Part shown: one piece after another, positions 11,745-45,772 of the stretch
Layout of the letters: every line of letters begins with the position of its first letter
Numbering within the stretch: the first letter of the stretch is position 1
Source of the DNA: a virus
Reading direction: 5' to 3' (one strand)
IMG/VR virus record: IMGVR_UViG_3300048928_000047
DNA length: 64,000 nucleotides
Translations under genes and position numbers: made by a program
Notes under the pieces: generated by a model
Databases searched by the model: none
Told to the model about the DNA's origin: nothing
The model's input: only the letters and a program-made list of their open reading frames with translations

Positions 11745-11753
11745 GGTGAACTT

Positions 11754-12905: not shown

Positions 12906-12945
12906 TAAAAAAGGGAACCTCGAAAGAGGCTCCCTTTATTTTTAT
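12905..12945. terminator. bidirectional terminator between convergent arms
   Basis: AAAAAAGGGAACCTC-GAAA-GAGGCTCCCTTTATTTTT. 10-bp stem (one mismatch) flanked by an A-run and a T-run, between the + late module and the - arm. Confidence 0.8.
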
Positions 12946-12947
12946 CC

Positions 12948-13850
12948 TTAGAAAGGAATATCGTCGTCGAAGTCCATTGGAGGTTCTGGCTCAGGAGCTT
13001 TTACCGCCTCTTTTGGCTTACGAGTTGTCTTTGGCTTCTCTGCGGCTGGTTTGGATTCAGCAACAGGAGCATCACCACGGATTGCAGCAGCCACCTTATC
13101 AGATAGCGCCAGCACATCGCGAGCAGCTTCAATCAGTTCGTCAATGGTCACATCATCGCGAGAGTGATCACGGCAAGCATTCAGGATAGCATGACCGACA
13201 GAAGCACCCAGATCGTAATCAGTGATATCCACACCACGAGCCTTAGCAACTTCTGCTTTCAGCGTTACAGTGGCGGACTGTACTACACCTGCGAGTTCAA
13301 AGGCATCACCTTTCACACCACCACGGATTAGCTCAAGAGCACCGTTAACAGCGTGACCAGTTTCAATACCTACGGTATCGCGTTTCTTGAACGGTTGTTT
13401 AGCTGGAGTGCTATCACCACCTTTTCCTGCTTTCGGAGCAGCAGCTTGAACACCTTCGGTAGATACAACGAAGATCTTACCTTTGGATGATTGGTAATAA
13501 GTTTTACCCTGCCATTCATTAGGCTTAACGTCCAGTGTAATTTCAACACCACGTTCGATAGTCACCCACTGGTCGTCTTTCTTGACTTGCAGATTTTCAT
13601 GCTCTGGATGCAGCTTAACATCACCCAGACCGATCCAAACACCTGGATCATCCTTACCAGCACCTTTCTCTTTCAGAAGAATGGAAGCTTTGTGAGTGGA
13701 CTCAATTTTCTTATCCGGCTGACCAGCGACTTTAATGTAAGAGACTTTCATCTCTGCAAACTTGTCCAGCTTAACATATTCTACAATACCCTCAGCCCAG
13801 AATGCTTCTTGTTTAGTCTTGCGGTCGATTTCGGAATTAATTACTGGCAT
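12948..13850 (-). CDS. ssb: single-stranded DNA-binding protein with host-type acidic tip
   Basis: C-terminus PPMDFDDDIPF carries the same MDFDDDIPF as the E. coli SSB C-terminal tip. N-terminal OB-like region, disordered P/A/K linker. Adjacent to replication genes. Confidence 0.75.
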   Translation of the reverse strand: MPVINSEIDRKTKQEAFWAEGIVEYVKLDKFAEMKVSYIKVAGQPDKKIESTHKASILLKEKGAGKDDPGVWIGLGDVKLHPEHENLQVKKDDQWVTIERGVEITLDVKPNEWQGKTYYQSSKGKIFVVSTEGVQAAAPKAGKGGDSTPAKQPFKKRDTVGIETGHAVNGALELIRGGVKGDAFELAGVVQSATVTLKAEVAKARGVDITDYDLGASVGHAILNACRDHSRDDVTIDELIEAARDVLALSDKVAAAIRGDAPVAESKPAAEKPKTTRKPKEAVKAPEPEPPMDFDDDIPF

Positions 13851-20012: not shown

Positions 20013-20282
20013 TTAAAAATATTCGTTGCTCTCCATTACATAATTAAGTTCCAAGTCTTCCTTGTATTTCTTAAATTGGAAAGCTATTTCTGCACCTGTA
20101 ATACTTACGTTGGATATTTCTTCCATTCCATCATAAACACGAACATCATCAATGATCAGTCCACCGTAGAAATCCCAATCACTTTCGCGAGACAATGGAT
20201 TTGGTTCTTCGTAGAAGAAATCTACTTCGACAATTACAGGAGTGCCGGACGGCAAGTTATATTCAAAATCGAATGTATTCAT
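20013..20282 (-). CDS. hypothetical protein
   Basis: 89-aa acidic ORF. Its start shares one nt with the stop (TAA) of the upstream glycosyltransferase gene (TAATG overlap). Confidence 0.5.
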   Translation of the reverse strand: MNTFDFEYNLPSGTPVIVEVDFFYEEPNPLSRESDWDFYGGLIIDDVRVYDGMEEISNVSITGAEIAFQFKKYKEDLELNYVMESNEYF

Positions 20283-21226
20283 TACAACCTCTCAATAAGT
20301 AATCTACGAGTCTCGTTTAATGCATCAATACTATATTGAGCACGTACATATTTGGCTAAGGCCATTCCCTTTTCAACACAAATATCTGGAGACTCTACTA
20401 AGTATTCCACCAGGTCTTTCCATTCAGATAATGAATCAGCAAAGTAAACCAGATCCTTAAACTCTTCGGTGAAATAATTCTCACGAGGAGAACAAATCAA
20501 CGGTAAGCCTTTGGCTCCAGCCTCAAGAATCTTGAGGTTGCTTTTTGCATTATTGAAAGGATTGTCTACAAGCGGAGCAATGCTAATCTGATGACCGTCA
20601 TACGATTCCATGTAAGTGGCGTATGGTCTGACACCTTCATAGATACAATCAGGTTGAATATCTTCTCGTATCAATGTCCATTGCAAGCTACTTAGCTCTT
20701 CTTTGTCTCTACGGAATCCGCAGAGTGTTAGCATCTTACCGAGGGGCGGTAGGATTGCCAAGTCATGTTTATGGGTTTCACTGCCAGCCCACACCAATGG
20801 ACTCTTAGAATAACGATCCTTTGTTATGGTGAATTGCCATTCATCGAAAGGCAAACCATTCGGCACGATATGCACGTTGTCATTATATTCTGAGAGTTCT
20901 TTCTGGAGAGCCGGAGTAGTTGTTGTTACCAAATCACTCCGTTCCAAAAACCACTTGAGGTCATCACGGATACGGGTATCAAACAAGTCCTCAAGCATAT
21001 GTCCTTCTGGAATATGTAGGGAGTCATCAAGATCCATAACCATTTTGAAACCAAGTTGTTTGAGAGCCAGGAATCCTGACTTCCCACGAGTAGGCACACC
21101 ATTGAACACGAAGATATTGTGTTGTGGGTTAATGGTGAGCGCTCGTTTGTATGGAAGGATAATTCTATGGAAATCACAGACACTATAATTATGTCCGTTG
21201 CGTGTGTCAAGCACAATGTTAGGCAT
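20282..21226 (-). CDS. GT-B-fold glycosyltransferase (paralogue 1)
   Basis: C-terminal IAPLVDNPFNNAKSNLKILEAGAKGLPLICS fits the GT1/GT4 nucleotide-sugar binding region. Clear paralogue of 21235-22233 (shared CD(F/Y)HR, DLDD and KSNLKILEAGAKGLP blocks). Confidence 0.55.
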   Translation of the reverse strand: MPNIVLDTRNGHNYSVCDFHRIILPYKRALTINPQHNIFVFNGVPTRGKSGFLALKQLGFKMVMDLDDSLHIPEGHMLEDLFDTRIRDDLKWFLERSDLVTTTTPALQKELSEYNDNVHIVPNGLPFDEWQFTITKDRYSKSPLVWAGSETHKHDLAILPPLGKMLTLCGFRRDKEELSSLQWTLIREDIQPDCIYEGVRPYATYMESYDGHQISIAPLVDNPFNNAKSNLKILEAGAKGLPLICSPRENYFTEEFKDLVYFADSLSEWKDLVEYLVESPDICVEKGMALAKYVRAQYSIDALNETRRLLIERL

Positions 21227-21234
21227 AGAACTCC

Positions 21235-22233
21235 TTATAAACTTTCGATCACTTGTCGGCGCAATTCATTTGCATCATCAAGATTGTAATGTGTTCTGAC
21301 GTGTTCTGCAAGCATTAAACCACGATCCTCTGCGTAGTTTGGATTACGAAGAAGTTTCACCACCTCGTAGTGCCATTCTGCGCGGGATTCAGCATAAAAC
21401 ACCACGTTAGCATCCACCGGATTATAATATGGTAACACCTTAGAACAAATGATAGGTAGTCCCTTAGCTCCTGCCTCCAGGATCTTCAAGTTGCTTTTAC
21501 AAGCATTGAAGTCATTATCAACCAGGGGAGCAATAGCTACGGCATGACCATCGTACACCGACATATACTCGCCTAAATGATGTACTGCTGGTTTGTATTG
21601 TGCATTCGGTAGCTTACGTCTGACTTTTCTCCACTCGGCAGTTGTCAATTGCTGATGACTACCAGCAGGAGCAGACTTGTGCTCTTCATATCCGGCAATT
21701 GTTAACAAATCATCATCAAAACTGTTCGAGACAAGAGATAGATCAGGATAGTGACTTGCACCACCCGCCCATATCAACGGAGTGTCTGACTCTTTATCTT
21801 CACTCAGGGTAAACTGACCAGTGTCGAAAGGCAGTGCGTTACGGATAACCACCACATTTCTATTCAGTGGCCTTACCTTGTAAGCCAGATATTCAGTGGT
21901 GACGATAACAACATCTGCTAATTTCACCATGTCAATGATGTTCTGTGTGTGACTTGTGAACACGCTTGCCAGGTAATGTTCAGGGTTAAGTTCATAGAAG
22001 TCATCTAAATCTACTACCACCTTAACACCACGCTCTTTCAGACGGCGAACCTCTTCTGCACCACGAGAATAGATACGGTTGAATACCAGTACATTCTCTT
22101 TTGGTTTGAATTTATTATCAGCAAAAGGCATCACCACTCGGTGATAGTCGCACCCACTTCCTAACTTGTTATCACAATATAAGCGGGGCTTATGAACAAG
22201 CATGTTTAACATCCTCCTTAAATTATCAATCAT
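21235..22233 (-). CDS. GT-B-fold glycosyltransferase (paralogue 2)
   Basis: IAPLVDNDFNACKSNLKILEAGAKGLPIICS. Tandem paralogue of the previous gene. ATGA overlap with the upstream gene. Confidence 0.55.
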   Translation of the reverse strand: MIDNLRRMLNMLVHKPRLYCDNKLGSGCDYHRVVMPFADNKFKPKENVLVFNRIYSRGAEEVRRLKERGVKVVVDLDDFYELNPEHYLASVFTSHTQNIIDMVKLADVVIVTTEYLAYKVRPLNRNVVVIRNALPFDTGQFTLSEDKESDTPLIWAGGASHYPDLSLVSNSFDDDLLTIAGYEEHKSAPAGSHQQLTTAEWRKVRRKLPNAQYKPAVHHLGEYMSVYDGHAVAIAPLVDNDFNACKSNLKILEAGAKGLPIICSKVLPYYNPVDANVVFYAESRAEWHYEVVKLLRNPNYAEDRGLMLAEHVRTHYNLDDANELRRQVIESL

Positions 22234-24872: not shown

Positions 24873-25475
24873 TTACGGGCAGTCAAACCAGTTGACGTCA
24901 CCACCGAATGCTACCACCACATCACAGATATCCATACCTGCTTTACCAACACCGTAGGCTTTCAGTTTCCATTCGCCATCTTCACGAACCAGTGAAGCTA
25001 CGTGGCAGATGGTGTTACCAGCAACTTCCGGTGCCAGGAAGTCGAAGTCGAGGATCTCAACATTACGTTCTGCGTCGAAGATTTTCAGCATACCTTCGGA
25101 GGCATGACCGAGGCGCTTCTGACCAGTTTCATCGTCGATGGTGATCACGAATGCAATTTCATCTGCATTCTGGGAGATTTTACTCAGAGTAACATCGATC
25201 TGCTCCAGGTTGCCAGTACCATCACGAACATCTTCGCCAGCGAAGGTTGAACGCTCTGGATCAACTTTGTTTGCATAGCAAACCAGGTGACGGGCAGACA
25301 GCATTTCTGGATTACCAGAGGCATTATGACGGCACACCAGTGCGCTTACGTCCAGATCCAGCTTAGTGGATGATTTCCAGGAGAATTCCAGACGAATCTC
25401 TTTCAGCAGAGGTGCGATCTTTTTCAGGGAGATCTTTTCGGTGGAACCTTTTTTCAGGGAAATTTTCTCAGACAT
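24873..25475 (-). CDS. terD: TerD-family protein
   Basis: Start moved to MSEKISLKKG (AAGGAGAA SD). Motifs ISLKKG..ISLKK, LDLDVSALV, FAGEDVRDGTG and EIAFVITIDD follow the TerD-domain pattern. Confidence 0.85.
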   Translation of the reverse strand: MSEKISLKKGSTEKISLKKIAPLLKEIRLEFSWKSSTKLDLDVSALVCRHNASGNPEMLSARHLVCYANKVDPERSTFAGEDVRDGTGNLEQIDVTLSKISQNADEIAFVITIDDETGQKRLGHASEGMLKIFDAERNVEILDFDFLAPEVAGNTICHVASLVREDGEWKLKAYGVGKAGMDICDVVVAFGGDVNWFDCP

Positions 25476-25507
25476 GTATGTTCTCCTTCTTTCTGTTTTC
25501 ATTTACT

Positions 25508-25570
25508 GGGGAAGAACCGCTCTTCCCCCTTTGATGTAATCTATTCTACGTATTTCTTAGGGTAAGTCAA
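25508..25570 (-). promoter_or_regulatory. sigma70-type promoter plus leader hairpin upstream of terD
   Basis: Minus strand: TTGACT (25570-25565), 16-nt spacer, TAGAAT (25548-25543). Then ...ATCAAA plus hairpin GGGGAAGA-GCGGT-TCTTCCCC (25528-25508), then the SD. Confidence 0.6.
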
Positions 25571-25579
25571 CAACTATTT

Positions 25580-26374
25580 TTAGTTTTTTGCACCTACTTT
25601 CTCAACCCACTGACCAAACTCATCAGACAGCAGTTTGTCATAGAGTTGTTCGTCAGACAGATCCAGGTCATCAATGCCGATGAAAGCTACGTTATCGTAT
25701 TCATTTGCCAGAGCTTTTAGGAAGCTAAAGCGAGCATTACCAACCCCAACCATGAACCAGTAGATAGGTTTACCTTTGTTACGGTTCAGTACAGCGCGTA
25801 CTGCGGATTCGTCATTGTTCTCACCATCAGTCTGGAAGAACACCATTGCAGGTGTGGTATCCACAGACGCAGAGGTATCTGGTACTTGTTCTGTGATCGT
25901 TTTCTTGACAGTAACGGTTTCAGTTTTACCTGTCAGTTTGGCAAAGAAGCCGCTCACCGGACGCTGCTCTTGTACCTCAACTTCACGAGATACAGTTTTC
26001 ATTGGCGTAGAGCCAAAGTATTCGTCGTAGATCGCCTGGATAACTGGTGCGTAGCTTGTGCCGCCATTGATGGATACGTTACGCATACATTTACCTACGT
26101 AGTCGTCGTACACGTCAGCGGTAGCTGGCGGCAGTTCAGAAGAGTAGTTGTTGAACGCCCACATATCGATCTGCTGGTTATCGTCAAACTGCATACCGAA
26201 CGGCAGGAGTTTACCGACGAAATCACTCACAGTACCGTTACGGTACAGGCTGTGCATACTACCAGAGATATCCAGTGCAGATGCTACGCGCAGTACGATC
26301 TGTGCAATCTTTTTCTTTTTCAGGCTGATTACCAGTTGTTCCTGACGTTTTACCAGACTAATTTTCTCGCTCAT
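25580..26374 (-). CDS. von Willebrand factor A (vWA) domain protein, TerY/TerF-like
   Basis: MIDAS motif ALDISGSM, later FFQTDGENND. N-terminus MSEKISL mirrors the TerD start. Adjacent to terD. Confidence 0.7.
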   Translation of the reverse strand: MSEKISLVKRQEQLVISLKKKKIAQIVLRVASALDISGSMHSLYRNGTVSDFVGKLLPFGMQFDDNQQIDMWAFNNYSSELPPATADVYDDYVGKCMRNVSINGGTSYAPVIQAIYDEYFGSTPMKTVSREVEVQEQRPVSGFFAKLTGKTETVTVKKTITEQVPDTSASVDTTPAMVFFQTDGENNDESAVRAVLNRNKGKPIYWFMVGVGNARFSFLKALANEYDNVAFIGIDDLDLSDEQLYDKLLSDEFGQWVEKVGAKN

Positions 26375-26577
26375 AATTTTTCCTCCATTAAGTTTTTAAG
26401 TGCGATGGTTGTTTCAGATTGGGTTTCTTCCTCGGAACCATCTGGATTTGCATGATAGTGCAAGAAATCTTCTGGGTCGTACCAATCGGATTCTTGACCT
26501 TGCTTCCAACCATCTATGAATGCGTCTTCGATGATAGTCTTTAACTCAAGACGTGTCAAGGTGATTTTATCAGTCAT
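26371..26577 (-). CDS. hypothetical small acidic protein
   Basis: 68 aa. 4-nt overlap downstream and 8-nt overlap upstream. Confidence 0.5.
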   Translation of the reverse strand: MTDKITLTRLELKTIIEDAFIDGWKQGQESDWYDPEDFLHYHANPDGSEEETQSETTIALKNLMEEKL

Positions 26578-26797
26578 CTTGTACCTCCGCTAACTGTTCT
26601 CGATAGTGATCATCATCCCATCCACCTGGTGGATAAAAGTCATCACCTACTTCGATGATTGTTCCACCTTCGCTCATTGCTAACTCTTCACAGAAGTAGT
26701 CATGGTAAGCGATCTTCTCCGCAAAGTCAACATCTTTGAAGAAACGAATAGTGGCGCTACCATCACCGCAATCGGCAATTACGAGAGCAATCTTCAT
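26570..26797 (-). CDS. hypothetical small acidic protein
   Basis: 75 aa. Translationally coupled on both sides. Confidence 0.5.
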   Translation of the reverse strand: MKIALVIADCGDGSATIRFFKDVDFAEKIAYHDYFCEELAMSEGGTIIEVGDDFYPPGGWDDDHYREQLAEVQDD

Positions 26798-27000
26798 ACC
26801 TCAAACTCCTTGACCAACTCAAGTTCATCAAAGCGTTCTGCTGAACACTGGTCATAACCGTAAAGTTCACGACCAACAACCAGCACAGGCTCCAGATTAG
26901 GGAAAGATAAAATATGTTCACTGTTCCCTGCAAACTGCTCTTCATCATCATAACGAACAGCTACATACCCATCTTCCAGTTTATAAATACGAATTCGCAT
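26794..27000 (-). CDS. hypothetical small protein
   Basis: 68 aa. AAGGAGAAAA SD. ATGA overlap downstream. Confidence 0.5.
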   Translation of the reverse strand: MRIRIYKLEDGYVAVRYDDEEQFAGNSEHILSFPNLEPVLVVGRELYGYDQCSAERFDELELVKEFEV

Positions 27001-27009
27001 GTTTTCTCC

Positions 27010-28113
27010 TTACACTAAGCCAGATTTGACTTTTTGGATCATCCCATCTTCCAGGGATTGAACCTCGTTGATGTAATCAATACGAGCGGCGCGAGCCTCG
27101 GTATTGATGCGGTTGGTTTCTTCCAGCATTTTAACCAGGTTTTCCTGATCTTTACGCAGGGTTTCAATGTCCAGAATCTGACGGTTAGACAGAGCCGTAG
27201 CATTGATAATGTTTTGTGCAGCCAAATCGCTCCCCATTTGAATTGCAGTGTTGAATTCATCCAACACATTAGCCTGACTTTTACCAGCTTCCGCCTGGCG
27301 TAAGCTCTCAATATACATTGAGAAGTTTGCAGAATAAGCCGGAATAACGTTGTTCACGATGTTACGAGCAGATCGCATAAGCATTTCGCTAACCTTAATC
27401 ATACTGTTCACTCGTGGTCCCATTTGCACACACAGCAAACGTAGTGCTTTAAGGTCAGCAATACGGATCTCCAGAATATCCAGGGTATCGCGGATCTCGG
27501 TACGAGTTTCCACTTCTTCCTCTGGTGTATTCAAGAAACGTGCTTCCTCTTTTGCGTAGGTGTCCGTCAGGAGTTCCACATCACGGTTAAGGCTCATGGC
27601 GTACTGAGCAATAGCGGATTTCAGTTTTTCCAGATAGACAAGTGAATCTTCCTCTTTACGCACATCACCTTCCAGTTCTTTCACCAGAACATCAATACGG
27701 TTGTTAACGTTGTCGTACTCAGCAAACAGATCTTCTTTCAGCCCCATGATCTTCTTGATGAATTTACCAACGCCTTTTGACTGCTTGATTGAAGAAGGAT
27801 CAAGCTGTTTAGCCTGTTTAATCAGGGCAGTGAGGCGTTCATTCATCTCCCCACCTTGATTACCACGTTGGTGTTTCAGGACTTCGCTGTTGAGGCTACG
27901 CAGAGTTAATCCTGCCTCAGCGCCCACTCCGTCAATCTCCTTGCGGCTCATTGCAGGAAGAGCAGGTACAGGTTTAACAACTGCCGGAGCAAACACAGGG
28001 CTTGCTTCCAGCACACTTGGAGCCAGTGCAGAGCGTTTGTCATCAACAGTGGTCAGAACACTTGCACCATGCTTATTGCCTTTCACGGCATTCAGGAATG
28101 GACTCTTAGACAT
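27010..28113 (-). CDS. telA: TelA-like (toxic anion resistance family) protein
   Basis: 367-aa all-helical protein. The segment LDPSSIKQSKGVGKFIKKIMGLKEDLFAEYDNVNNRIDVLVKELE...DSLVYLEKL fits the TelA/KlaB pattern. Lies between the TerD/vWA genes and TerC. Confidence 0.65.
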   Translation of the reverse strand: MSKSPFLNAVKGNKHGASVLTTVDDKRSALAPSVLEASPVFAPAVVKPVPALPAMSRKEIDGVGAEAGLTLRSLNSEVLKHQRGNQGGEMNERLTALIKQAKQLDPSSIKQSKGVGKFIKKIMGLKEDLFAEYDNVNNRIDVLVKELEGDVRKEEDSLVYLEKLKSAIAQYAMSLNRDVELLTDTYAKEEARFLNTPEEEVETRTEIRDTLDILEIRIADLKALRLLCVQMGPRVNSMIKVSEMLMRSARNIVNNVIPAYSANFSMYIESLRQAEAGKSQANVLDEFNTAIQMGSDLAAQNIINATALSNRQILDIETLRKDQENLVKMLEETNRINTEARAARIDYINEVQSLEDGMIQKVKSGLV

Positions 28114-28123
28114 TTCTTTCTCC

Positions 28124-28687
28124 TTATACAGTCATGTTAATGGAGGATGTGTACATTTCTGCACCCTCAGCTTCGAGGATCACAGTCCCCAAGTTGGTGA
28201 GTGACATATCCAGTTCAAATTGATGGTTAACACCACGGACTTTGACACGCGCAACATCGTCATTAGGTACGGTGATTGCTTGACGATAGTTTACAGTATC
28301 TTTCCAGTTATCTTCCATGATAAAGACAACCTTCTCAGCAGTTACTTCGATGGAAATAAAGTCTTTCACTGTATATTGCTCTCCACTTGTGAAAGTAATT
28401 GTCGCTTTATTTACAGTTGGGGCTTTGTTTCGTTCACCCTTTTTACGTTTGGCACGTTTTGGTTTTTCTGTTTGAAGAACTGGGTACATTGGCGTAATAA
28501 CGGCTTCACCAGTTTTCACCATATCAGCACCAGAAAATTGAGTAGTTCCTGTTGTTACACCCTTAAACACCCAATCACCGTTGTTCTCAATGCGAACAAG
28601 TCTGAAAAGATTGCTGTTATCTTCCAGAACACTCTCCGCGAAACCTTCTCCGGTCAGGTGGTACACATTATTTACGATAAGTTGCAT
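28124..28687 (-). CDS. hypothetical protein
   Basis: Start moved to MQLIVNNVYHL (AAAGGAGAGAA SD), downstream of the promoter cassette at 28721-28754. Confidence 0.5.
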   Translation of the reverse strand: MQLIVNNVYHLTGEGFAESVLEDNSNLFRLVRIENNGDWVFKGVTTGTTQFSGADMVKTGEAVITPMYPVLQTEKPKRAKRKKGERNKAPTVNKATITFTSGEQYTVKDFISIEVTAEKVVFIMEDNWKDTVNYRQAITVPNDDVARVKVRGVNHQFELDMSLTNLGTVILEAEGAEMYTSSINMTV

Positions 28688-28720
28688 GTTCTCTCCTTTG
28701 TTATTGGTTTCTCTTGACGA

Positions 28721-28754
28721 GAGGGACTTTATTATCCCTCTAAGCAAAAGTCAA
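28721..28754 (-). promoter_or_regulatory. class-II promoter cassette (GTTGACTTT; -10 inside a hairpin loop)
   Basis: Minus strand: TTGACT (28754-28749), 17-nt spacer, TAAAGT (28731-28726). Hairpin GAGGGA/TCCCTC encloses the -10. Followed by CAAGAGAAACC. Confidence 0.55.
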
Positions 28755-28756
28755 CC

Positions 28757-28996
28757 TTACTGCGAAATGATTTCTTTGATTGCTGGTTCACGTCCTGCTA
28801 ACGTACCGTCAAAATCAATAAGGAAGCTGAATTCAACGCCACTTTCGTGCTGAAACAGCAGTCGGTCATTCGGATCGTAGACGTAGATACCGTCTTCGTC
28901 AACCAGGACGATTTCCAGTTGATCTTTATCTCCGTGTGCCGAGAAGTCTGTGTCAACCATTACTGCGATATCACCTTTCTTTGCATTCTTAAACAT
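28757..28996 (-). CDS. hypothetical protein
   Basis: 79-aa ORF. AAGGAGG SD. Confidence 0.5.
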   Translation of the reverse strand: MFKNAKKGDIAVMVDTDFSAHGDKDQLEIVLVDEDGIYVYDPNDRLLFQHESGVEFSFLIDFDGTLAGREPAIKEIISQ

Positions 28997-29008
28997 GTTG
29001 CCTCCTTA

Positions 29009-29572
29009 TTAGCGACGACGACTTGAGCTAAAGCTGCTACGACTTGAGGAGAAGCTCTTGCTGCTGCTATAACTACGAGATGGTTTACTGTAGCTACTCA
29101 TTGGGCTGGAGTAGGATTTCTTAGCCGAGTATGCGCTGTTAGTGCTCATAGTCGGACGGGACTGCGTTTGATACACCTGCTTACCACTGTTGTTGTAATA
29201 ACGAGTGGTGTTGCTGGAATAACTGCTACCACTACGAGGCTGCGCTACGGTGTTGTTATTGATGATCGTAGTGCGGCTGGAGTTATTGCTGTAGCCACCA
29301 CCGTTACCACCGCCGCTCATCATATGCCCCAGGATCATACCAGTGGCAAAGTCGCCAACACCGGAATCATGACCACCGCTTTGAACGATAACCGGAGCAG
29401 GAGCCGCCTGAACAACTTGTGGCGCTGGTTGGTTAACGTATTGCTCATCCACCATCTGCTGCTGAGGAGCAGGGACGTATTGAGTTTGTTTTGGAACATC
29501 ATCATCACAACCTACCAGCATACTTGCACCCAGAACGATCACAGCACCCAGTACCAGTTTCATATTAGTCAT
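29009..29572 (-). CDS. Ser/Tyr-rich lipoprotein with glycine-zipper segment
   Basis: Signal peptide plus lipobox MKLVLGAVIVLGASMLVGC. Glycine zipper GDFATGMILGHMMSGGGNGGG. C-terminal low-complexity SYSSxxS tail ending RRR. Confidence 0.6.
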   Translation of the reverse strand: MTNMKLVLGAVIVLGASMLVGCDDDVPKQTQYVPAPQQQMVDEQYVNQPAPQVVQAAPAPVIVQSGGHDSGVGDFATGMILGHMMSGGGNGGGYSNNSSRTTIINNNTVAQPRSGSSYSSNTTRYYNNSGKQVYQTQSRPTMSTNSAYSAKKSYSSPMSSYSKPSRSYSSSKSFSSSRSSFSSSRRR

Positions 29573-29762
29573 GTTTGTTCTCCTCGCTTGAAATTTTACA
29601 CTTAGTTTTATCGGTCGAGTAGCAATATGTTTGCTTCCCGTCTTTCATGACTTCAATAGTACCTCCGTTCAGTACCATTGTCAACACCGTGAACAAAAAT
29701 AAAAATCCGATTGCGTAACAAATATTTTCAAACACGATCCAGATCACTTTTAAGATTTTCAT
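29565..29762 (-). CDS. small membrane protein
   Basis: 65 aa. One strong TM helix (ICYAIGFLFLFTVLTMVL). 8-nt overlap with the next gene. Confidence 0.5.
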   Translation of the reverse strand: MKILKVIWIVFENICYAIGFLFLFTVLTMVLNGGTIEVMKDGKQTYCYSTDKTKCKISSEENKHD

Positions 29763-29769
29763 ATTTACC

Positions 29770-29946
29770 TCAATTTAAGAATGAAAGGTTCTGTGTGGAT
29801 TCGATTAATCGAATGCTGTACTCAGAAGGATCGGAAAACTCACTCAACAGCATCTCCCTCGCCTCCGTGTAAGTCTTGGCTCTGACTACCGTAATCTCAG
29901 AGATAAATTTAGAACCACACGTAACTAAAAACAAATAATTAATCAT
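29770..29946 (-). CDS. hypothetical small protein
   Basis: Start moved to MINYLFL (GGGAGAG SD). 58 aa. Confidence 0.4.
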   Translation of the reverse strand: MINYLFLVTCGSKFISEITVVRAKTYTEAREMLLSEFSDPSEYSIRLIESTQNLSFLN

Positions 29947-29962
29947 TACTCTCCCTCTATAC

Positions 29963-29988
29963 AAAAGCCTCCCGAAGGAGGCTCTTTT
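29963..29988 (-). terminator. terminator AGCCTCC-(4)-GGAGGCT flanked by A/T runs
   Basis: 7-bp stem with tetraloop and flanking AAAA / CTTTT, 3 nt after the terC stop. Confidence 0.65.
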
Positions 29989-29990
29989 GA

Positions 29991-30974
29991 TTAAGCTGTT
30001 GCTTCGTCTTCTTTCTCAGGGAAGACCAGACTTGCCAGAACACCAAGTGCCAGAGTACCCAGTACGATATACAGACTAACGTTAGCTGAGATATCGTGTG
30101 GCAGGAACGCCCACTTAGCATGTAACGTTTCACCGAACGGGTGGTAAATCAGTTTAGCACCAACAAACACCAGGACCACCGCCACTGCTTTCTCCAGGTG
30201 AACCAGATACTTAACTGCAACACTCAGCACGAAGAACAGAGCACGTAAACCCAGGATTGCGAACAGCATCGCAGAGTAAACCAGCAGAGGTTCTTGTGTC
30301 ACACCGATCACCGCAGGTACAGAGTCGAAGGAGAAGATTACGTCAGTAAACTCTACCACGAACACACACAGCAGGGCTGGAGTTGCATATTTAATACCAT
30401 TTTTAATCGTGATGAACTTCTCGCCATCAAGAGCCGGATGAACCGGAAGGATCTTACCAACCAGACGGGTAGCCCAGTGTTTGGAATAATCTACATCCTC
30501 TTCATCGTCATCACCGCCTTTGATGATAGCCATTGCAGACCATGCAACAATCAAGCCGAACAACACTTGTACAGACCAATGCAGGTTGAACAGTGCAGTA
30601 CCTGCTGCTACGAAGATACCACGGAAGACAATTGCACCTGCGATACCCCAAAGCAGAATCTTATGCTGCAAGTGTGTCGATTTGATACCGAAACTTGCGA
30701 AGATTGCCATGAACACCATCAGGTTATCCACCGACAAGGATTTCTCTAATACATACCCGCTTAGGAAGAGAGAAGCAAACTCTTTACCATACTCTACCCA
30801 AATGAAACCGTAGTACGCAAAGGCCAGGGCAATCCAGAATGCTGACCACGCCAGCGCACTTTTAATACCGATCTCTTTATTCTCCTTATGACCGAAGAAG
30901 TCCACTACGATTGACAGTACCAGTACACCAACCAGCACTGCGATATCCAGCAGTGGGAATCCGAAATGAGTCAT
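29991..30974 (-). CDS. terC: TerC-family integral membrane protein
   Basis: Multi-pass membrane protein. KSLSVDNLMVFMAIFASFGIKSTHLQHKILLWGIAGAIVFRGIF is the TerC signature region. Confidence 0.85.
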   Translation of the reverse strand: MTHFGFPLLDIAVLVGVLVLSIVVDFFGHKENKEIGIKSALAWSAFWIALAFAYYGFIWVEYGKEFASLFLSGYVLEKSLSVDNLMVFMAIFASFGIKSTHLQHKILLWGIAGAIVFRGIFVAAGTALFNLHWSVQVLFGLIVAWSAMAIIKGGDDDEEDVDYSKHWATRLVGKILPVHPALDGEKFITIKNGIKYATPALLCVFVVEFTDVIFSFDSVPAVIGVTQEPLLVYSAMLFAILGLRALFFVLSVAVKYLVHLEKAVAVVLVFVGAKLIYHPFGETLHAKWAFLPHDISANVSLYIVLGTLALGVLASLVFPEKEDEATA

Positions 30975-30991
30975 GTTTTTCTCCTCTTTTG

Positions 30992-31052
30992 AAGAGGGAG
31001 CCTATCTCCCTCTTGATAACTTATACTTTACTCTCTTTTCGCACAGAGTCAA
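30992..31052 (-). promoter_or_regulatory. sigma70-type promoter plus leader hairpin upstream of terC
   Basis: Minus strand: TTGACT (31052-31047), 16-nt spacer, TAAAGT (31030-31025). Then ATCAAG plus hairpin AGAGGGAG-(5)-CTCCCTCT (31012-30992), then the GAGGAGAAAAA SD. Confidence 0.6.
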
Positions 31053-31055
31053 GCA

Positions 31056-31481: not shown

Positions 31482-31970
31482 TTACTTTAATTGATAAACA
31501 ATCACCTCTAAGCCTCTCAGCATCAGAGTTTCTTTGATCATGGCCTCAACAACCGACCACTTCCCTCCAGCCAAACCGCAACCAATCAGGGGTAAACCCA
31601 CACGTCTTGCGCCATTGGCTACCAGGTCTGCTCCCATCGCATCCAGTGCATCGTAGATGGCATTGTAGTTCAGGTCACGAATGCCTTGATCTCGCTTACT
31701 GTACCCATACTGTCCGTACAGGTTATAAACAGTCAGGAAACCATCCTCAACTACAGCTTTACTGTAGCCACCAAGCTTATACTTGTCGCCTTTAATGGTT
31801 GCACAATCTGCGGCGTACACATCAGGCCATTTAGCCTTAATCTTGGGAGCAATACCGCTCCCCATTGTGTTCCAGCAGTTGCAACAGTGTGCAATCGCAT
31901 CTACTTCACCTTCGGAAGCTGCAACAAGAAGATTTCCTTCTCGGTATTGAATAGGTTCAATCTGCTGCAT
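31482..31970 (-). CDS. macro domain protein (ADP-ribose binding/hydrolase fold)
   Basis: DAIAHCCNCWNTMGSGIAPKIKAKWP and VGLPLIGCGLAGGKW match the two glycine-rich macro-domain loops. Confidence 0.8.
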   Translation of the reverse strand: MQQIEPIQYREGNLLVAASEGEVDAIAHCCNCWNTMGSGIAPKIKAKWPDVYAADCATIKGDKYKLGGYSKAVVEDGFLTVYNLYGQYGYSKRDQGIRDLNYNAIYDALDAMGADLVANGARRVGLPLIGCGLAGGKWSVVEAMIKETLMLRGLEVIVYQLK

Positions 31971-32520
31971 GTTTATCCAACCATTTTTCAGCTTTAACTT
32001 TCAGCAGATCGTTCAAATGACCAACTACCTCGTCTGCCAGTTCCTGACCATCAAGACCACTGGTTGACTTTTTGTGCAGTAGCGCCAAATCCAAGGCGCA
32101 GATAATAACATCAGCACATTCACCCAAAAGGTCTTCTTTCTGACGATCAGGATTGACCAGCCAATCTGCACACTCGCCAGTTTCAGATGCAAGGTATGCC
32201 ATTACTTGGAATACGTCACGAGGTTGATTAACCTTATGGCTTGCATGTACCGCAGTAGAGATATCCAGAGTCATTTCAGGGTAGTCTAAGTGCTTAGCCT
32301 CATCCTCTACCCAGAACATATCATGATGACCACCAACAATGGTAAAAGTAGGATATTCTGTACCGGAGTCAAGCTCTATGGCTTTTACTCTTACTTTACC
32401 ATTAGCTGTGGCTTCCACCAGTTCCAGCACACGGATGTGATAACCCATACCGAATCCAGCGCCATTACTCTTAGCGATGCGCCCGATATCTTTTTGGGAA
32501 ACACTTGTGATCTTTTCCAT
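31957..32520 (-). CDS. protein with C-terminal MazG-like NTP pyrophosphohydrolase domain
   Basis: ASETGECADWL ... LLGECADVIICALDLALL resemble the paired EExxE/D helices of the all-alpha NTP-PPase fold. ATG at 32520 follows an AAGGAGG SD. 14-nt overlap with the macro gene. Confidence 0.6.
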   Translation of the reverse strand: MEKITSVSQKDIGRIAKSNGAGFGMGYHIRVLELVEATANGKVRVKAIELDSGTEYPTFTIVGGHHDMFWVEDEAKHLDYPEMTLDISTAVHASHKVNQPRDVFQVMAYLASETGECADWLVNPDRQKEDLLGECADVIICALDLALLHKKSTSGLDGQELADEVVGHLNDLLKVKAEKWLDKHAAD

Positions 32521-32530
32521 CAACCCCTCC

Positions 32531-33364
32531 TTACTTATTTAAGATATTGCTTTCAAAGAAATGCTCCAAGAACTCAAAGTTCTCTTCATATTTCTCAATG
32601 CTGTTGTAACCTTCTGCCAGGCAACCAAAGTAGAGCGCTTCTACATAAGACAGAGGAAGCTGGCTGAGTGCCACCTTAAAGGTGATTTCACTCTGGCTCA
32701 TCAGGTACTTGATCGGACGCACCAGGCACTTAGCATCAGGTTCATCCTTGATCATCTGCACAAATGCAGAGACACTGTTAATGTCGCTGAAATTCAGCGC
32801 CGCTTCTGTGTTTGCCTCATTGCCGTTATACTTGGCAAAGTACAGGAAAAATGTATCGTTAGTTACATTCTCTGCATCCAGGATCTCAATCAGCTTGTCC
32901 TCATGGGTTCCGGTGATATTCACGTCATCAATGAAGATCAGATTTTTGTTACCCCAAAAGTCTTTATTGATAGAGAACGTGTCGCCATCGATCAGAGCCT
33001 TACGATCTTCCTTACTCAGGAAGCCGTAGTCATTAATGTAACTCACTTTACGGTGGATGATATCCCACTCAATTGGGTAAGCACCACCCATACGGTTCAT
33101 CAGATAATTGAGATGGTCTACAAAATGCTCTGACAACACCGTAGCTGCGTTTTTAACGTAGTTGTAAGGCGAAGGTATTACCACGAACTGTTCGTTCAAC
33201 AGACGCAGTTTGTGGGCTTCATAGAAGCTCTCTGCCAGTTTACGTCCCATACGCTTCGCAGCTTGATTACTACCGAATTTCAGACGTGAGTAGTCGGCAG
33301 TATTAAAACAAGCAACAGTCAGGTCGCTAAAGACATGGGCGAAGTGTTGTTTCTGGTTACGCAT
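32531..33364 (-). CDS. type I phosphoribosyltransferase (PRTase)
   Basis: PRPP-binding loop NLIFIDDVNITGTHEDK (four hydrophobic residues, DD, xx, TG, xT). 277 aa. Confidence 0.7.
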   Translation of the reverse strand: MRNQKQHFAHVFSDLTVACFNTADYSRLKFGSNQAAKRMGRKLAESFYEAHKLRLLNEQFVVIPSPYNYVKNAATVLSEHFVDHLNYLMNRMGGAYPIEWDIIHRKVSYINDYGFLSKEDRKALIDGDTFSINKDFWGNKNLIFIDDVNITGTHEDKLIEILDAENVTNDTFFLYFAKYNGNEANTEAALNFSDINSVSAFVQMIKDEPDAKCLVRPIKYLMSQSEITFKVALSQLPLSYVEALYFGCLAEGYNSIEKYEENFEFLEHFFESNILNK

Positions 33365-34016
33365 TGATGATTTCTCCTTTTTGCAGTTTCTCTAACAGGT
33401 CTTCTGGGTTCTTAATGTGACAGAAATTAAATCCTGCGTCAACACATCTCCCATCAAAAATTTCACTATCTCCGATGTGCAATACTTCGTCGGGTTGAAG
33501 CTGGCGATTGTAAGATCGAAGAACTGTCTGGTCAAAGAAGCGTTTATCAGGTTTACACATTTCCCAGTTATCAGAAAAGTGCATGAAAGCCCAGAAAGGC
33601 ATACGATCAAAACCGACAGCCTGCGCCAGAATATATCCAGGAATGAAGTTGGTATTGCTCTTAATGCTCAACTCATAATCCATCGACAGATTAATCAGTC
33701 GGTCAACCAAGTCCATACTCAGGTGTGGTGGATTCACCAGGAAAGCCATCTCAGAATACTTTTTCATCTGCTCTGCTGATTTTCGATCTACACCCAAGTG
33801 TCTACCCAACGCCCACCATGCGTGATATTGATCACCACACAACATGTGTTCAGCATTCATATCCAACACACGTTTGACGTGTGCATAGGCAGCATCTGCC
33901 TCTTCTGGAGCTACTCCGCCAAAGTAAGAAATAATTTCTGTACGCTCGTAAGCATAACGAGGATTAGCAGTGATCAGGGTATTCCATACGTCAAAAGAGA
34001 TGTGTTTGATTGTCAT
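33357..34016 (-). CDS. HAD-superfamily hydrolase
   Basis: Start moved to MTIKHISFDVWNTLI (motif I of the FDxxGTL type). Motif IV VLHIGDSEIFDGRC. 8-nt overlap with the PRTase gene. Confidence 0.6.
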   Translation of the reverse strand: MTIKHISFDVWNTLITANPRYAYERTEIISYFGGVAPEEADAAYAHVKRVLDMNAEHMLCGDQYHAWWALGRHLGVDRKSAEQMKKYSEMAFLVNPPHLSMDLVDRLINLSMDYELSIKSNTNFIPGYILAQAVGFDRMPFWAFMHFSDNWEMCKPDKRFFDQTVLRSYNRQLQPDEVLHIGDSEIFDGRCVDAGFNFCHIKNPEDLLEKLQKGEIINA

Positions 34017-34017
34017 A

Positions 34018-34623
34018 TTAAGCCCACCATGCGTCAAGGTTTAAGTTACTGTCTACTATCACTTGTTCTACGTGATAGCTCTTCATTTCGATTCCATTTA
34101 ACAGAAGCATACCATACACCTCATTGAAACGCAACTTATCTTCTGCGGAATAAAGACGAGCATTATAGAAGCGATAATCCACCTCTTCGGCATTGGAAGA
34201 GATACGAAAGAAGCCAGTGTCAATTTCCGGCGCACTTGCCGGAGTCTTGATATGCACTTCCCCGTAATGTTCTTTGCTCAGATCCATAAACATTACACAC
34301 GCAACGTGCCGGAACATCTGCTCCAGCTTATAACGTACTACTTTGAATCCAGCCTCTTCGAGTTTTGCTACACAATCCAACATAAGATCTGTCTCAATAC
34401 CCGCCTGGTATTTAGTGAGCATACGGTCACGCTGTGACTGAGTATCACGGTGCAGATCGATTGTGGTACATTTTGCACCAATCAATTTTGCTGCCTCCAT
34501 GAGTTGTTCACTATTTACATCTGCCAGGGTGAGATGAAAGTGCGCTTTCCACACCTTCTCCACTGGAACACCAAGAGGTTCACCGTTGGTGCGTGGCAGG
34601 TTGACGATCAGCTTATGTTTCAT
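34018..34623 (-). CDS. hypothetical protein (one HxTx motif; possible degenerate 2H-phosphoesterase, unproven)
   Basis: 201 aa. AHFHLTL fits HxTx, but the second candidate VHIKT does not. First gene of the overlapping operon ending with the macro gene. Confidence 0.5.
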   Translation of the reverse strand: MKHKLIVNLPRTNGEPLGVPVEKVWKAHFHLTLADVNSEQLMEAAKLIGAKCTTIDLHRDTQSQRDRMLTKYQAGIETDLMLDCVAKLEEAGFKVVRYKLEQMFRHVACVMFMDLSKEHYGEVHIKTPASAPEIDTGFFRISSNAEEVDYRFYNARLYSAEDKLRFNEVYGMLLLNGIEMKSYHVEQVIVDSNLNLDAWWA

Positions 34624-34841: not shown

Positions 34842-34861
34842 AAAGGGGCTTTCGCCCCTTT
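34842..34861 (-). terminator. hairpin AAAGGGGC-(4)-GCCCCTTT
   Basis: 8-bp stem with tetraloop, 4 nt after the AAA+ gene stop. Confidence 0.55.
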
Positions 34862-43319: not shown

Positions 43320-44021
43320 TCACTGACTTTGCTTGCGCCATTGGTACACTCCAAACAGAGAGTTAAGCAGGAATGCTACCCACATCGCCAGCACCGCTGC
43401 GCCACCACCTTCATGGTGTAGTGTAGCCTGAATCCACATGACCACTGCCACGATGTTAACCAACACCCAAACATACCATTGCTCAGCATAACGGTACATC
43501 ATAAGTGTGGTAGCCAGAATGGACAGGATTGCAGTTGCAGAATCCAAACCAGGCATACTACCTTTCAGTTCGGCTACGAACAAGGCATAAAGCCCAATTG
43601 CTGCCAGCGTACCGACGCTCACCCAAATGCGTTGCTTTGTCGTCAGGTAGTTCTTGATAACATCTGCACGATCTCCACTTACATTCAGCTTTCGACTCCA
43701 CACCACTGCGCCCCAGAACTGCATCGGGAGGAACACGAGTGTGTACATGATCGCTTCACCGAAGAGTTGGTATTTGTATGAGATCCATGCGTAGAGTGCC
43801 GTAGCAATGACACCCCACCAGTAGCTTGAAATTTTACCCTTTGCCACAAGGATCGCACCTACAATCCCTGTTACTGAGGAGATAAACTCAACCAGCGTAC
43901 TGTTCATCGCAATAGAGATCGCACCGATACTGGCAGTACAGATAACCAACCAAAGATATTCCAAAGGTTTCCAGCCGTAGAAGTCAGTCCAGGTGGATTT
44001 AACGTATAAGTTCATGTTCAT
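43320..44021 (-). CDS. pnuC: nicotinamide riboside transporter PnuC
   Basis: GAILVAKGKISSYWWGVIATALYAWISYKYQLFGEA and LMMYRYAEQWYVWVLVNIVAVVMW match the two conserved PnuC blocks. About seven TM helices. Confidence 0.85.
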   Translation of the reverse strand: MNMNLYVKSTWTDFYGWKPLEYLWLVICTASIGAISIAMNSTLVEFISSVTGIVGAILVAKGKISSYWWGVIATALYAWISYKYQLFGEAIMYTLVFLPMQFWGAVVWSRKLNVSGDRADVIKNYLTTKQRIWVSVGTLAAIGLYALFVAELKGSMPGLDSATAILSILATTLMMYRYAEQWYVWVLVNIVAVVMWIQATLHHEGGGAAVLAMWVAFLLNSLFGVYQWRKQSQ

Positions 44022-44040
44022 CTCCTCTTTAGGATTAAAA

Positions 44041-44337
44041 TTAGTCTTTTTTCAGATGTTCCAGCACTTCTTCACGAGTCATTACACGACCTTCTTCGAC
44101 GTCCCGTTGTGAGATTTCAAGGAGCTTGACAAGAGCTTCCAATTGTTCTTCTTCATCAACAGGTTCAAAATCCCAGAATGCACCTTTCATCGGGATAGGA
44201 ATGCGATCCAGACCACCCTTATCATCACGTAGCAACATTCCACCGTATCCAAATCCTTCTATCACATAGAGAGTATCCACCGAATACAATTCAGAGTCAT
44301 CGCTACGAGTACATCTTACACGATCACCGATTTTCAT
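44041..44337 (-). CDS. hypothetical protein (tandem paralogue, MKIGD family)
   Basis: MKIGDRVRCTRSDDSELYSVDTLYVIEGF parallels the neighbour's MKIGDVLRCTYSVDSDFTVGNLYEIVSF. Confidence 0.5.
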   Translation of the reverse strand: MKIGDRVRCTRSDDSELYSVDTLYVIEGFGYGGMLLRDDKGGLDRIPIPMKGAFWDFEPVDEEEQLEALVKLLEISQRDVEEGRVMTREEVLEHLKKD

Positions 44338-44519
44338 TCAACCTCCTCGAAACGCCAACGAGTGCCATTCATCACAACACCGATACCGCCAGTGTAATCA
44401 TCGTTATCCCTCAGAATAGGATCACCATCCTTATCAAAAGACACGATTTCATAGAGATTTCCTACCGTGAAATCACTGTCCACTGAATAAGTACAACGCA
44501 ACACATCTCCAATTTTCAT
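44334..44519 (-). CDS. hypothetical protein (tandem paralogue, MKIGD family)
   Basis: 61 aa. ATGA overlap with the downstream paralogue. Confidence 0.5.
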   Translation of the reverse strand: MKIGDVLRCTYSVDSDFTVGNLYEIVSFDKDGDPILRDNDDYTGGIGVVMNGTRWRFEEVE

Positions 44520-44528
44520 AAACCCTCC

Positions 44529-44702
44529 TCAGAGTCTTTCGAATGTCACCTTAGCAAGGTGGAGTTCTTTTACTGGTACAAACCCGTTGTACCCGTCAAC
44601 AATCCACTCTTTACCGTGGCGCACCACGATTTCGTATTCACGCAGTTCCAGCTTTGGTACTGCTCGTTCTGTAGCCAACACTTTAAGACGTTTTCCAAAC
44701 AT
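44529..44702 (-). CDS. 57-aa protein (not in ORF track)
   Basis: MFGKRLKVLATERAVPKLELREYEIVVRHGKEWIVDGYNGFVPVKELHLAKVTFERL. GGAGGG SD. Fills the gap between nadR and the MKIGD genes. Confidence 0.5.
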   Translation of the reverse strand: MFGKRLKVLATERAVPKLELREYEIVVRHGKEWIVDGYNGFVPVKELHLAKVTFERL

Positions 44703-44704
44703 TG

Positions 44705-45772
44705 TCAACCCTCCGCTAAAAGTTTATCAATGGCTGTAATAGCTTGATTGACACGATCTTCATAGTCTGTACCCGTGATGTGAACAACAGGGACAGCACA
44801 GTAGAGGTCATGAACCATATCCCACAGCAAGGTATTAGTGTTCTCACGCTTACCTGCGGTGTCTTGCAGACGTAAAGGATCAGCAACCCACTCTACCTCT
44901 GGAGACAGGAACAACACCATATCGTAGAAGTTATGTGCTTCTTCAATAGCCAGTGACATAAACATATCATCATTATAACTCACTTTACCAGCACAAATTG
45001 CAGAAAAATGGGTTATCAGGTTTGTGGTGTCCGAGATGTGGACAACATGTGCCTCGTTGGAGTGCATATATTCTTCCATACGGTGTGCCATAGCCACTTT
45101 GAGATACGCTTCACGATCCATCAGGAATTCACTGCCGCAGAATAACTCTTCACAAATGTTCCGCCCAATCTCAGGCGTAGATGTTGTTTTGTAATGACGA
45201 GCTAAAAGCTCCGTCATCGTGGATTTACCAGTGCTTTCTACACCAATGATAGCTACACGTTTGACAAAACGTGGTTTAGCTTGCTCGGAAAGATATTCAA
45301 AGTTTTCCCGTAGATTGGTACGGATACGAGTGGCAGAGATGTTCACTCCGCTGCGCTCTGCATCCAGTACAACATGCTCCACCTCTGGGAAATACTCAGA
45401 GAAGTAGGCAGTATACTCCGGCTCAGAAGAGAATGCGTGTGTCAACACCTCTCCTTCGGGGATCTTAGCACGAATCAACTCAGCATACGACTTACCACCT
45501 TCTGGGTAGCCAGGAATGTTGGACTCGTCCACGTAGTCTACGATCACTTTGTGAGTGAGTCCAGAGTCTTCAACAAGAGCTTTGAGATCCCACAAACGTT
45601 GACTTAAACCGAGGCGTTCCTGCATCCACGGGGTTTGAGTGTCGTTGAACTTCTGGTCGAAAGACAGGAACAAATACAGACGATCAATGCCCGATTCTAC
45701 TGCCATACGGATGAAGTTGACATGTCCTGCTGTCAGTGGTGCAAACTTACCAAAAATTAAGCCTACTTTCAT
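44705..45772 (-). CDS. nadR: NadR-type bifunctional NMN adenylyltransferase / ribosylnicotinamide kinase (no HTH domain)
   Basis: VGLIFGKFAPLTAGHVNFI (nucleotidyltransferase HxGH-type motif, cf. E. coli NadR GKFYPLHTGH). Walker A VAIIGVESTGKST (cf. NadR GGESSGKST). Confidence 0.85.
   Translation of the reverse strand: MKVGLIFGKFAPLTAGHVNFIRMAVESGIDRLYLFLSFDQKFNDTQTPWMQERLGLSQRLWDLKALVEDSGLTHKVIVDYVDESNIPGYPEGGKSYAELIRAKIPEGEVLTHAFSSEPEYTAYFSEYFPEVEHVVLDAERSGVNISATRIRTNLRENFEYLSEQAKPRFVKRVAIIGVESTGKSTMTELLARHYKTTSTPEIGRNICEELFCGSEFLMDREAYLKVAMAHRMEEYMHSNEAHVVHISDTTNLITHFSAICAGKVSYNDDMFMSLAIEEAHNFYDMVLFLSPEVEWVADPLRLQDTAGKRENTNTLLWDMVHDLYCAVPVVHITGTDYEDRVNQAITAIDKLLAEG

Follow-up and report, generated by a model that had tools for sequence, protein, structure and literature searches.

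Ter systems have for decades been linked to resistance against phages, colicins and tellurite, and we know of no study that has identified the nucleoside-like metabolite predicted for them. The Ter system includes 'PRTases and HAD fold phosphoesterases' (PRTase, phosphoribosyltransferase) that make a nucleoside or nucleotide derivative (PMC7824862). This biosynthetic module is a computational prediction of Anantharaman, Iyer & Aravind 2012, as cited in later papers (PMC7824862). Among viruses, Ter systems were reported (Iyer et al. 2021, PMC7824862) for jumbo phages of Caulobacter, for phage vB_AbaM_ME3 and for 'certain other related smaller tailed phages'. Here, we analyse a block of five minus-strand genes (31482-34623) in the IMG/VR virus record IMGVR_UViG_3300048928_000047; the whole stretch of 64,000 nucleotides is called the window. 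The window comes from a phAPEC8/phi92-like (Stephanstirmvirinae) phage of the Klebsiella type, and its closest relatives are the Klebsiella phages KP13-26 and phi1_175008, with 82-86% nucleotide identity across the region.

In the direction of transcription, the five genes encode a 201-aa protein with a mostly viral, uncharacterised family behind it (denoted unk201), a HAD-superfamily hydrolase, a PRTase, a MazG-like protein and a macro domain. The original prediction, made from the letters of the DNA, joined all five into one small-molecule pathway. We consider it probable that the block is a mosaic instead, in which the HAD-PRTase_3 dyad, part of a phage-borne Ter system, forms the conserved core and the macro, MazG-like and unk201 genes are accessory. 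The Ter reading itself has been published before, as a computational prediction, and the window is a further member of it. The unit to be tested is then the dyad together with the phage TerD, TerC, TelA and vWA genes and not a five-gene pathway, and the phages of this group that infect E. coli or Klebsiella are easily grown and offer a tractable route to the Ter metabolite.

The HAD-PRTase dyad and its linkage to Ter genes

The domain calls of the original prediction (HAD, PRTase, MazG-like and macro) hold, at strengths that differ between Pfam, PHROG, PDB and motif evidence. The clearest case is the PRTase, which matches the Pfam family PRTase_3 (PF15610, ComF-like) with 138.5 bits at a cut-off of 28.7 (E 3.4e-40), covering profile positions 8-264 of 264; we take this entry to have been defined from the PRTases of Ter operons. 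Its loop for phosphoribosyl pyrophosphate (PRPP), FIDDVNITGTHE, occupies residues 144-155. The underlying pattern FIDDVxITGTHE is invariant among homologues, and D146, D147, T151 and G152 are unchanged across 16 of them. Sequence and profile searches of the PDB returned nothing for this protein. The possibility, considered in the original prediction, that best hits would reveal a housekeeping enzyme of, for example, the adenine or orotate type was not borne out, as no housekeeping PRTase family match was returned. In GenBank the protein is labelled 'DNA methyltransferase' in Klebsiella phage phi1_175008 and 'orotate phosphoribosyltransferase' in other records, and family searches support neither label.

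The HAD hydrolase stays below its Pfam cut-off (21.6 vs 26.4), but phrog_14393, PDB 2om6 and the conserved HAD motifs support the assignment. Motif I, SFDVWxTL with the nucleophile D9, is invariant, and so are S120-N121, K155 and G182-D183...D188.

These two genes travel together. Relatives of the PRTase were found in 157 GenBank phage records; in all annotated phage relatives that were examined (phi92, KP13-16, Caulobacter CcrColossus and Rhizobium RHph_TM61) the HAD gene lies directly upstream. Likewise, HAD stands immediately before PRTase_3 in 18 of the 20 loci from IMG/VR and in almost all of the 24 from bacteria. The pair, moreover, is recurrently linked to TerD, TerC, TelA and vWA-TerF in phages, Bacteroidales and Actinobacteria. 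On metagenomic phage contigs the gene order is TelA, vWA-TerF, ..., TerC, x, HAD, PRTase_3, TerD; a locus of Pedococcus reads TerD, TerC/DUF475, vWA-TerF, TerD, TerD, HAD, PRTase_3, PRTase_3, and one in a metagenome-assembled genome of Tannerella reads three TerD, VWA, TerY, PP2C, kinase, HAD, PRTase_3. In the window, TerC lies 0.5 kb downstream, and TelA, vWA-TerF and TerD follow 3.4-6.6 kb downstream on the same strand. This Ter cluster (24873-30974, minus strand), with small and secreted-looking proteins interspersed, is kept in phi92, in phAPEC8-type phages and in the Klebsiella relatives. Thus, the part of the predicted pathway that stood is the union of the PRPP-dependent enzyme and the HAD hydrolase in one conserved module, as seen from their adjacency in phages, IMG/VR contigs and bacteria.

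Compared with the described biosynthetic module, the window shares the PRTase_3 family, the order HAD then PRTase, and the linkage to TerD, TerC, TelA and vWA-TerF. It differs in having a single PRTase, whereas some bacterial clusters have two, and in that TerB, ATP-grasp and TIM-barrel lyase genes were not seen in the window. Furthermore, its module is interrupted and flanked by the macro, MazG-like and unk201 genes, which the bacterial clusters lack.

From the gene identities, the adjacency and the co-conservation, all of which are observed, we infer a chemistry and a biological role. The PRTase would form a riboside 5'-phosphate from PRPP and a base-like nucleophile, and the HAD hydrolase would then remove the phosphate to leave a nucleoside-like metabolite. 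In the infected cell, this metabolite may act together with a membrane-associated complex of TerD, TerC, TelA and vWA proteins. Its purpose, to go by the literature, could be the exclusion of competing phages or protection from envelope or xenobiotic stress.

Alternatively, the pair might be a nucleotide-salvage or nucleotide-pool module for phage replication that stands near Ter genes incidentally. Such a role would fit the pairs of Caulobacter phages, Rhizobium phages and rhizobia, in whose flanks no Ter gene was detected, and the setting of the locus in relatives, where it sits among ribonucleotide reductase, helicase and other nucleotide or DNA genes. However, the Ter linkage recurs in phages, Bacteroidales and Actinobacteria, the dephosphorylation of a newly made nucleotide runs opposite to salvage, and the PRTase matches no housekeeping family despite the orotate PRTase label given by some annotators. 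We therefore regard the salvage explanation as unlikely.

Macro and MazG-like genes

The macro protein of phage T4, Tk.4, shields T4 from the DarTG2 system and was named AdfM (2025 preprint; genetic demonstration, in T4 only). The macro domain of the window is 32% identical to Tk.4 over 147 residues (E 5e-19) and, like it, is encoded by a stand-alone phage gene. It passes the Pfam cut-off for PF01661 (26.8, cut-off 22), and its closest PDB relatives are BT1257 and SCO6735 (E ~1e-18), followed by TARG1 (4e-09) and DarG (8e-06). The DarG models of NCBIfam and PADLOC (5.8e-14) match the macro part only; unlike DarG, the window protein has no C-terminal DarT-binding domain and reaches 48 bits against a DarG model cut-off of 250. 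A further difference exists to the macro protein gp185 of phi92, which carries an extra N-terminal domain. Judging from these similarities, the protein is probably an AdfM-type, orphan antitoxin-like ADP-ribosyl hydrolase that removes DarT-made ADP-ribose from DNA. Its family is present in 2977 phage records, mostly without a HAD-PRTase pair, and it accompanies the pair solely in Stephanstirmvirinae.

In the MazG-like protein, the C-terminal half alone matches Pfam MazG, and its 14.8 bits fall short of the cut-off of 22. The assignment is supported by phrog_1247 (E 2e-22) and by the acidic motifs E113TGECAD119 (ETGECAD) and E134CAD137 (in GECAD); searches of the PDB with sequence and profile returned nothing. 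Over its MazG core (residues 85-182), the protein shares 40-43% identity with the MazG-like proteins of about 100 aa in T4-like Klebsiella, Enterobacter and Serratia phages. The window protein differs from these small phage proteins by an additional N-terminal domain of 85 aa. As a putative all-alpha NTP pyrophosphohydrolase, it would be expected to hydrolyse some nucleoside triphosphate. The full-length gene was found in 4 records only and is missing in phAPEC8-type (EF1-1) and phi92-type relatives; it is a recent, lineage-specific insertion. The N-terminal ~85 aa (32266-32520 in the window) resemble the N-terminal extension of gp185 (phi92 locus 6851-7120), with 27% identity and an E-value of 7e-05 for a single comparison. 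The same small domain thus occurs in two fusions at one locus, to macro in phi92 and to MazG in the window, which suggests that sequence was inserted or shuffled here.

The third accessory gene, unk201, is distributed independently of the pair as well. A 51-aa open reading frame (ORF) stands in its place in phi92, and a hidden Markov model of the unk201 family found no match in PRTase loci beyond the phapecoctavirus/Klebsiella-phage lineage. In one phage that carries both, unk201 and the PRTase are ~14 kb apart, and elsewhere unk201 occurs without the pair.

One pathway or a mosaic

All five ORFs of the original prediction are present on the minus strand, and the close junctions described for them could be read from the sequence. 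The stop codon of unk201 (TAA, 34020-34018) is separated by one T from the ATG of the HAD gene (34016-34014), the HAD and PRTase genes overlap by 8 nt (ATGCGTAA, 33364-33357), and the MazG-like and macro genes overlap by 14 nt (31970-31957). Yet the description as five overlapping genes applies to the HAD/PRTase and MazG/macro junctions and does not extend to PRTase and MazG, between which lies a spacer of 10 nt containing AAGGAGG. Of two candidate start codons for the MazG-like gene, a TTG at 32523 and an ATG at 32520, the ATG is the likelier. A crude ORF map of the window has 99 pairs of same-strand neighbours, of which 45 (~45%) overlap or are at most 2 nt apart, and therefore the chaining of the five genes is not distinctive.

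This bears on the proposal that all five genes form one pathway for the synthesis or destruction of a signal derived from a ribonucleotide or from ADP-ribose. The tight, partly overlapping packing on one strand is in its favour, as is the nucleotide or ribose-phosphate chemistry common to the four recognisable domains, and so are the constant position of macro after the PRTase in Stephanstirmvirinae and the fusion of the MazG N-terminal domain to macro in phi92. But three of the five, macro, MazG and unk201, are not co-conserved with the pair and are distributed independently of it, overlaps of this kind are common in the genome, and the macro family is widespread as a stand-alone gene with a separate role demonstrated in T4. 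Hence, the five-gene version of the pathway did not hold, and we see little chance that it is correct.

Several points also weigh against a Ter-linked dyad with accessory neighbours. The chemistry of the dyad is deduced from fold families; for Ter-linked PRTase/HAD pairs, we are not aware of any assigned product, substrate or phenotype. In the HAD protein, an invariant Trp occupies the position of the general acid Asp+2, as it does in PDB 2om6, and this substitution spans homologues from phages to an actinobacterium; the enzyme may thus not be a classical phosphomonoesterase and may follow an atypical chemistry. Where the pair occurs in phages of Caulobacter and Rhizobium and in rhizobial genomes, Ter genes were undetected in the flanks examined, so that the pair can work without a nearby Ter cluster. 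In Stephanstirmvirinae, on the other hand, macro always follows the pair, and a lineage-specific functional tie of the macro and MazG-like genes to the dyad within this group is conceivable. Similarly, the shared N-terminal domain, as judged from its sequence, leaves room for a local functional tie between the MazG-like and macro genes.

A mostly viral family represented by unk201

Among the products of the block, unk201 is the sole element without a known relative. Pfam and NCBIfam searches gave no match, sequence and profile searches of the PDB were empty, and a Pfam scan of 71 family members revealed no shared family. Its close homologues are few and lie on phage-sized contigs, but a profile search of 1.84 billion representatives expanded the family to at least 254 clusters at 50% identity, some members of which are fused to NUDIX, HD_4 or helix-turn-helix (HTH) domains. 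A homologue in phi1_175008 (10189-10794) is annotated as 'MazG-like pyrophosphatase', which family searches do not support.

The family core comprises residues ~25-201 (~175 aa), with H28, H30, T32, K51, T53, D66, T70, R97, K99, E101, E122, H124, K126, S142, N144, R156, E186, D191, D197 and W200 invariant. On nearly every predicted strand, the invariant polar residues are spaced i, i+2 (H28/H30/T32, K51/T53, D66/T70, R97/K99/E101, E122/H124/K126, S142/N144, N154/R156, E186...D191), and this pattern suggests a charged ligand-binding or catalytic face. In the predicted fold, invariant His, Lys, Arg, Glu and Asp residues line one side of the sheet. AlphaFold models reached a pLDDT (predicted local distance difference test) of 82 and, from a deeper alignment, of 89.7 with a predicted TM-score (pTM) of 0.83. 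The best Foldseek matches of the model in the PDB were tandem ferredoxin-like proteins (ACT pairs, chlorite dismutase/DyP, YkoF and bacterial microcompartment (BMC) proteins) with TM <= 0.36, and the first model (pLDDT 82) had given the same weak ferredoxin-like outcome. The predicted fold is accordingly tandem ferredoxin-like with no solved relative. Matches in a viral structure library were to uncharacterised proteins, encoded by giant eukaryotic viruses and by Rheinheimera, Acinetobacter (ME3), Aeromonas and Sinorhizobium phages. An internal duplication was considered and rejected, as hhalign gave a non-significant probability of 4% for the N-terminal against the C-terminal half.

From an HxTx motif, the original prediction had raised the possibility of a degenerate 2H phosphoesterase, i.e., an enzyme that degrades cyclic nucleotides in the manner of the anti-CBASS protein Acb1. 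The motif is real (H30-L-T32-L) and invariant in the family. Classical 2H enzymes have their first motif ~40 residues in, and unk201 differs by carrying it at the extreme N-terminus of the core. The second motif is H124-I-K126-T, with Lys where the 2H motif has Thr or Ser. Like Acb1 and LigT, unk201 has a core of ~175 aa, a two-lobed alpha/beta architecture and His-bearing first strands, and it is a point in favour of the 2H assignment that each half opens with a strand bearing an invariant motif, H-x-T-x in the first half and H-x-K in the second. The NUDIX and HD fusions point to nucleotide chemistry, and one homologue adjoins an Acb1 gene in another phage. Similarity to the 2H enzymes in fold, Pfam family or profile was, however, absent: in the structure-prediction check the 50 best PDB matches of the confident model (pLDDT 89.7) included no 2H enzyme, none of the 71 members matched a 2H Pfam family, and hhalign against the neighbouring Acb1 gave a probability of 0.65%. 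We consider a 2H identity of unk201 very unlikely.

The contexts of unk201 vary. Nearly all are phage-like contigs (one is of uncertain origin), in which the gene sometimes stands alone among small early genes, and other contexts lie near gp32 and ParM-like genes. On the contig of a distant phage, an unk201 homologue and an Acb1 gene overlap (together 8001-9021), and a NADAR gene (12545-12976) follows 4 kb off; these surroundings look like a counter-defence neighbourhood. A 318-aa member of the family is found on a phage contig among genes for CCA-adding enzyme-like, PTH2, Ro60/TROVE-vWA and RNA ligase proteins (2490-12426), an RNA/tRNA-repair-like neighbourhood.

Against two PADLOC models named 'AbiEi', unk201 matches over its full length (PDLC02277, E 2.7e-13; PDLC02279, E 5.4e-11). 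The AbiEi Pfam family was not matched by any of the 71 members, nor were AbiEi sequences in the PDB matched. An AbiEii nucleotidyltransferase toxin was found beside unk201 relatives in none of ~12 contexts examined, and a tblastn search of plasmids for AbiEii neighbours with two distant members found nothing. A metagenome scan yielded 7 loci; at the one inspected, which encodes a NUDIX-fused member, no toxin-like neighbour was recognised. Other look-ups for such neighbours led to contigs that were short or of phage type.

The unk201 protein is probably a nucleotide-directed enzyme or binder, and we infer a use in counter-defence. A more far-reaching suggestion is that it founds an unrecognised, widespread viral family of orphan antitoxin-like counter-defence enzymes, which would reverse or pre-empt nucleotide damage or destroy a nucleotide immune signal. 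The idea of damage reversal arises because of the PADLOC AbiEi-like match and the tRNA-repair and Acb1/NADAR neighbours; it is speculative, and we put it forward as doubtful. If this counter-defence reading holds, the orphan DarG-like macro domain of the same operon would be its parallel. Two likely counter-defence genes are flagged in this way, the macro gene of the Tk.4/AdfM type and a member of the unk201 family, which has neither a Pfam entry nor a solved relative. A new anti-defence activity of the latter family, if true, would be the more interesting result.

NAD+ reconstitution genes in the window

PnuC and NadR together constitute NARP3, a two-gene pathway in which NAD+ is rebuilt from imported nicotinamide riboside (PMC13464706; described 2026). 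The original prediction had pointed to a NadR gene 10 kb upstream of the block and proposed that a nicotinamide-specific PRTase would complete a route from nicotinamide (Nam) via nicotinamide mononucleotide (NMN) to NAD. The NadR-like gene is indeed there, ~10 kb upstream (44705-45772, minus strand; AAA_28 and cytidylyltransferase-like domains). Close to it, with two small ORFs between, lies a gene for a PnuC-like transporter of NMN or nicotinamide riboside (43320-44021, minus strand). The window thus encodes both genes of NARP3 within 43320-45772; it differs in that this pair is 10 kb from the five-gene block, needs no PRTase and is not part of the block. Since NadR is already partnered by PnuC, no nicotinamide PRTase is needed.

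The PRTase itself belongs to the type I, ComF-like class. Its family searches returned PRTase_3 and a faint ComF match only, and membership in the type II NadV, NAMPT and PncB families was not found. According to the literature, NadV combines a TIM barrel with a sandwich-barrel domain at its N-terminus. What can be said for a nicotinamide-specific PRTase is that a NadR-like gene is present in the window and that phage NAD+ reconstitution pathways exist. On the other side, no nicotinamide or nicotinate PRTase family was returned, PnuC and NadR already complete NARP3 starting from imported nicotinamide riboside, and the PRTase is constantly partnered by HAD and Ter genes instead of genes of NAD metabolism. 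The proposed route is, in our estimate, extremely improbable.

Features around the block

The minus strand carries genes from ~12.9 kb to 49.6 kb of the window, and the features in and around the block are compiled in Table 1.

Table 1. Features of the five-gene block and of the downstream Ter cluster, in the order of transcription.
Feature	Position	Strand	Basis or remark
Terminator-like GC hairpin	34842..34861	-	AAAGGGGC GAAA GCCCCTTT, then CTTGTTT; 3' of upstream AAA-ATPase gene
Small conserved ORF, 68 aa	34634..34840	-	phrog_17780; possible HTH protein in the phi92 annotation
unk201 (gene 1), 201 aa	34018..34623	-	Mostly viral, uncharacterised family
HAD-superfamily hydrolase, family IA-like	33357..34016	-	phrog_14393, PDB 2om6, HAD motifs
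Type I PRTase, Pfam PRTase_3 (ComF-like)	32531..33364	-	PF15610
Two-domain MazG-like protein	31957..32520	-	phrog_1247, acidic motifs
Stand-alone macro domain	31482..31970	-	PF01661; TARG1/DarG/SCO6735 class; T4 Tk.4 (AdfM) homologue
Hydrophobic (membrane-like) protein, 67 aa	31268..31471	-	phrog_16065; in relatives kept between macro and TerC
Protein of ~71 aa	31056..31271	-	Hydrophobic, signal-peptide-like N-terminus (MKRILLTLALVLGTMGTANA)
TerC/Alx-family integral membrane protein	29991..30974	-	Pfam/NCBIfam
Intrinsic-terminator-like hairpin, strong	29966..29983	-	AGCCTCC TTCG GGAGGCT, then TTTTGT; directly after TerC stop
TelA (toxic anion resistance) homologue	27010..28113	-	
vWA-TerF-like protein	25580..26374	-	
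TerD-domain protein	24873..25502	-	

Directly after the hairpin upstream of the block follow a ribosome-binding site and an ATG, and space for a promoter is absent there. The 68-aa ORF that begins at this point is always found just ahead of the block in Stephanstirmvirinae. A scan for sigma-70-like promoters found 23 where 21.6 were expected, i.e., chance level, and tRNAs, a riboswitch upstream of TerC/Alx (yybP-ykoY) and other Rfam RNA families were not detected in the window. The leader of TerC (30975-31055) contains a sigma-70-like TTGACT-16-TAAAGT and a hairpin (GAGGGAGATAGGCTCCCTC).

Between TerC and TelA, a Ser/Asn-rich protein of 187 aa is encoded (29009-29572, minus strand; phrog_21570). 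It has a lipoprotein-type signal (...ASMLVGC-DDD) and may be a phage lipoprotein that acts at the envelope. Additionally, two neighbouring glycosyltransferase-like genes with weak GT1/GT4 Pfam matches (20282-22233, minus strand) lie just downstream of the primase-helicase gene.

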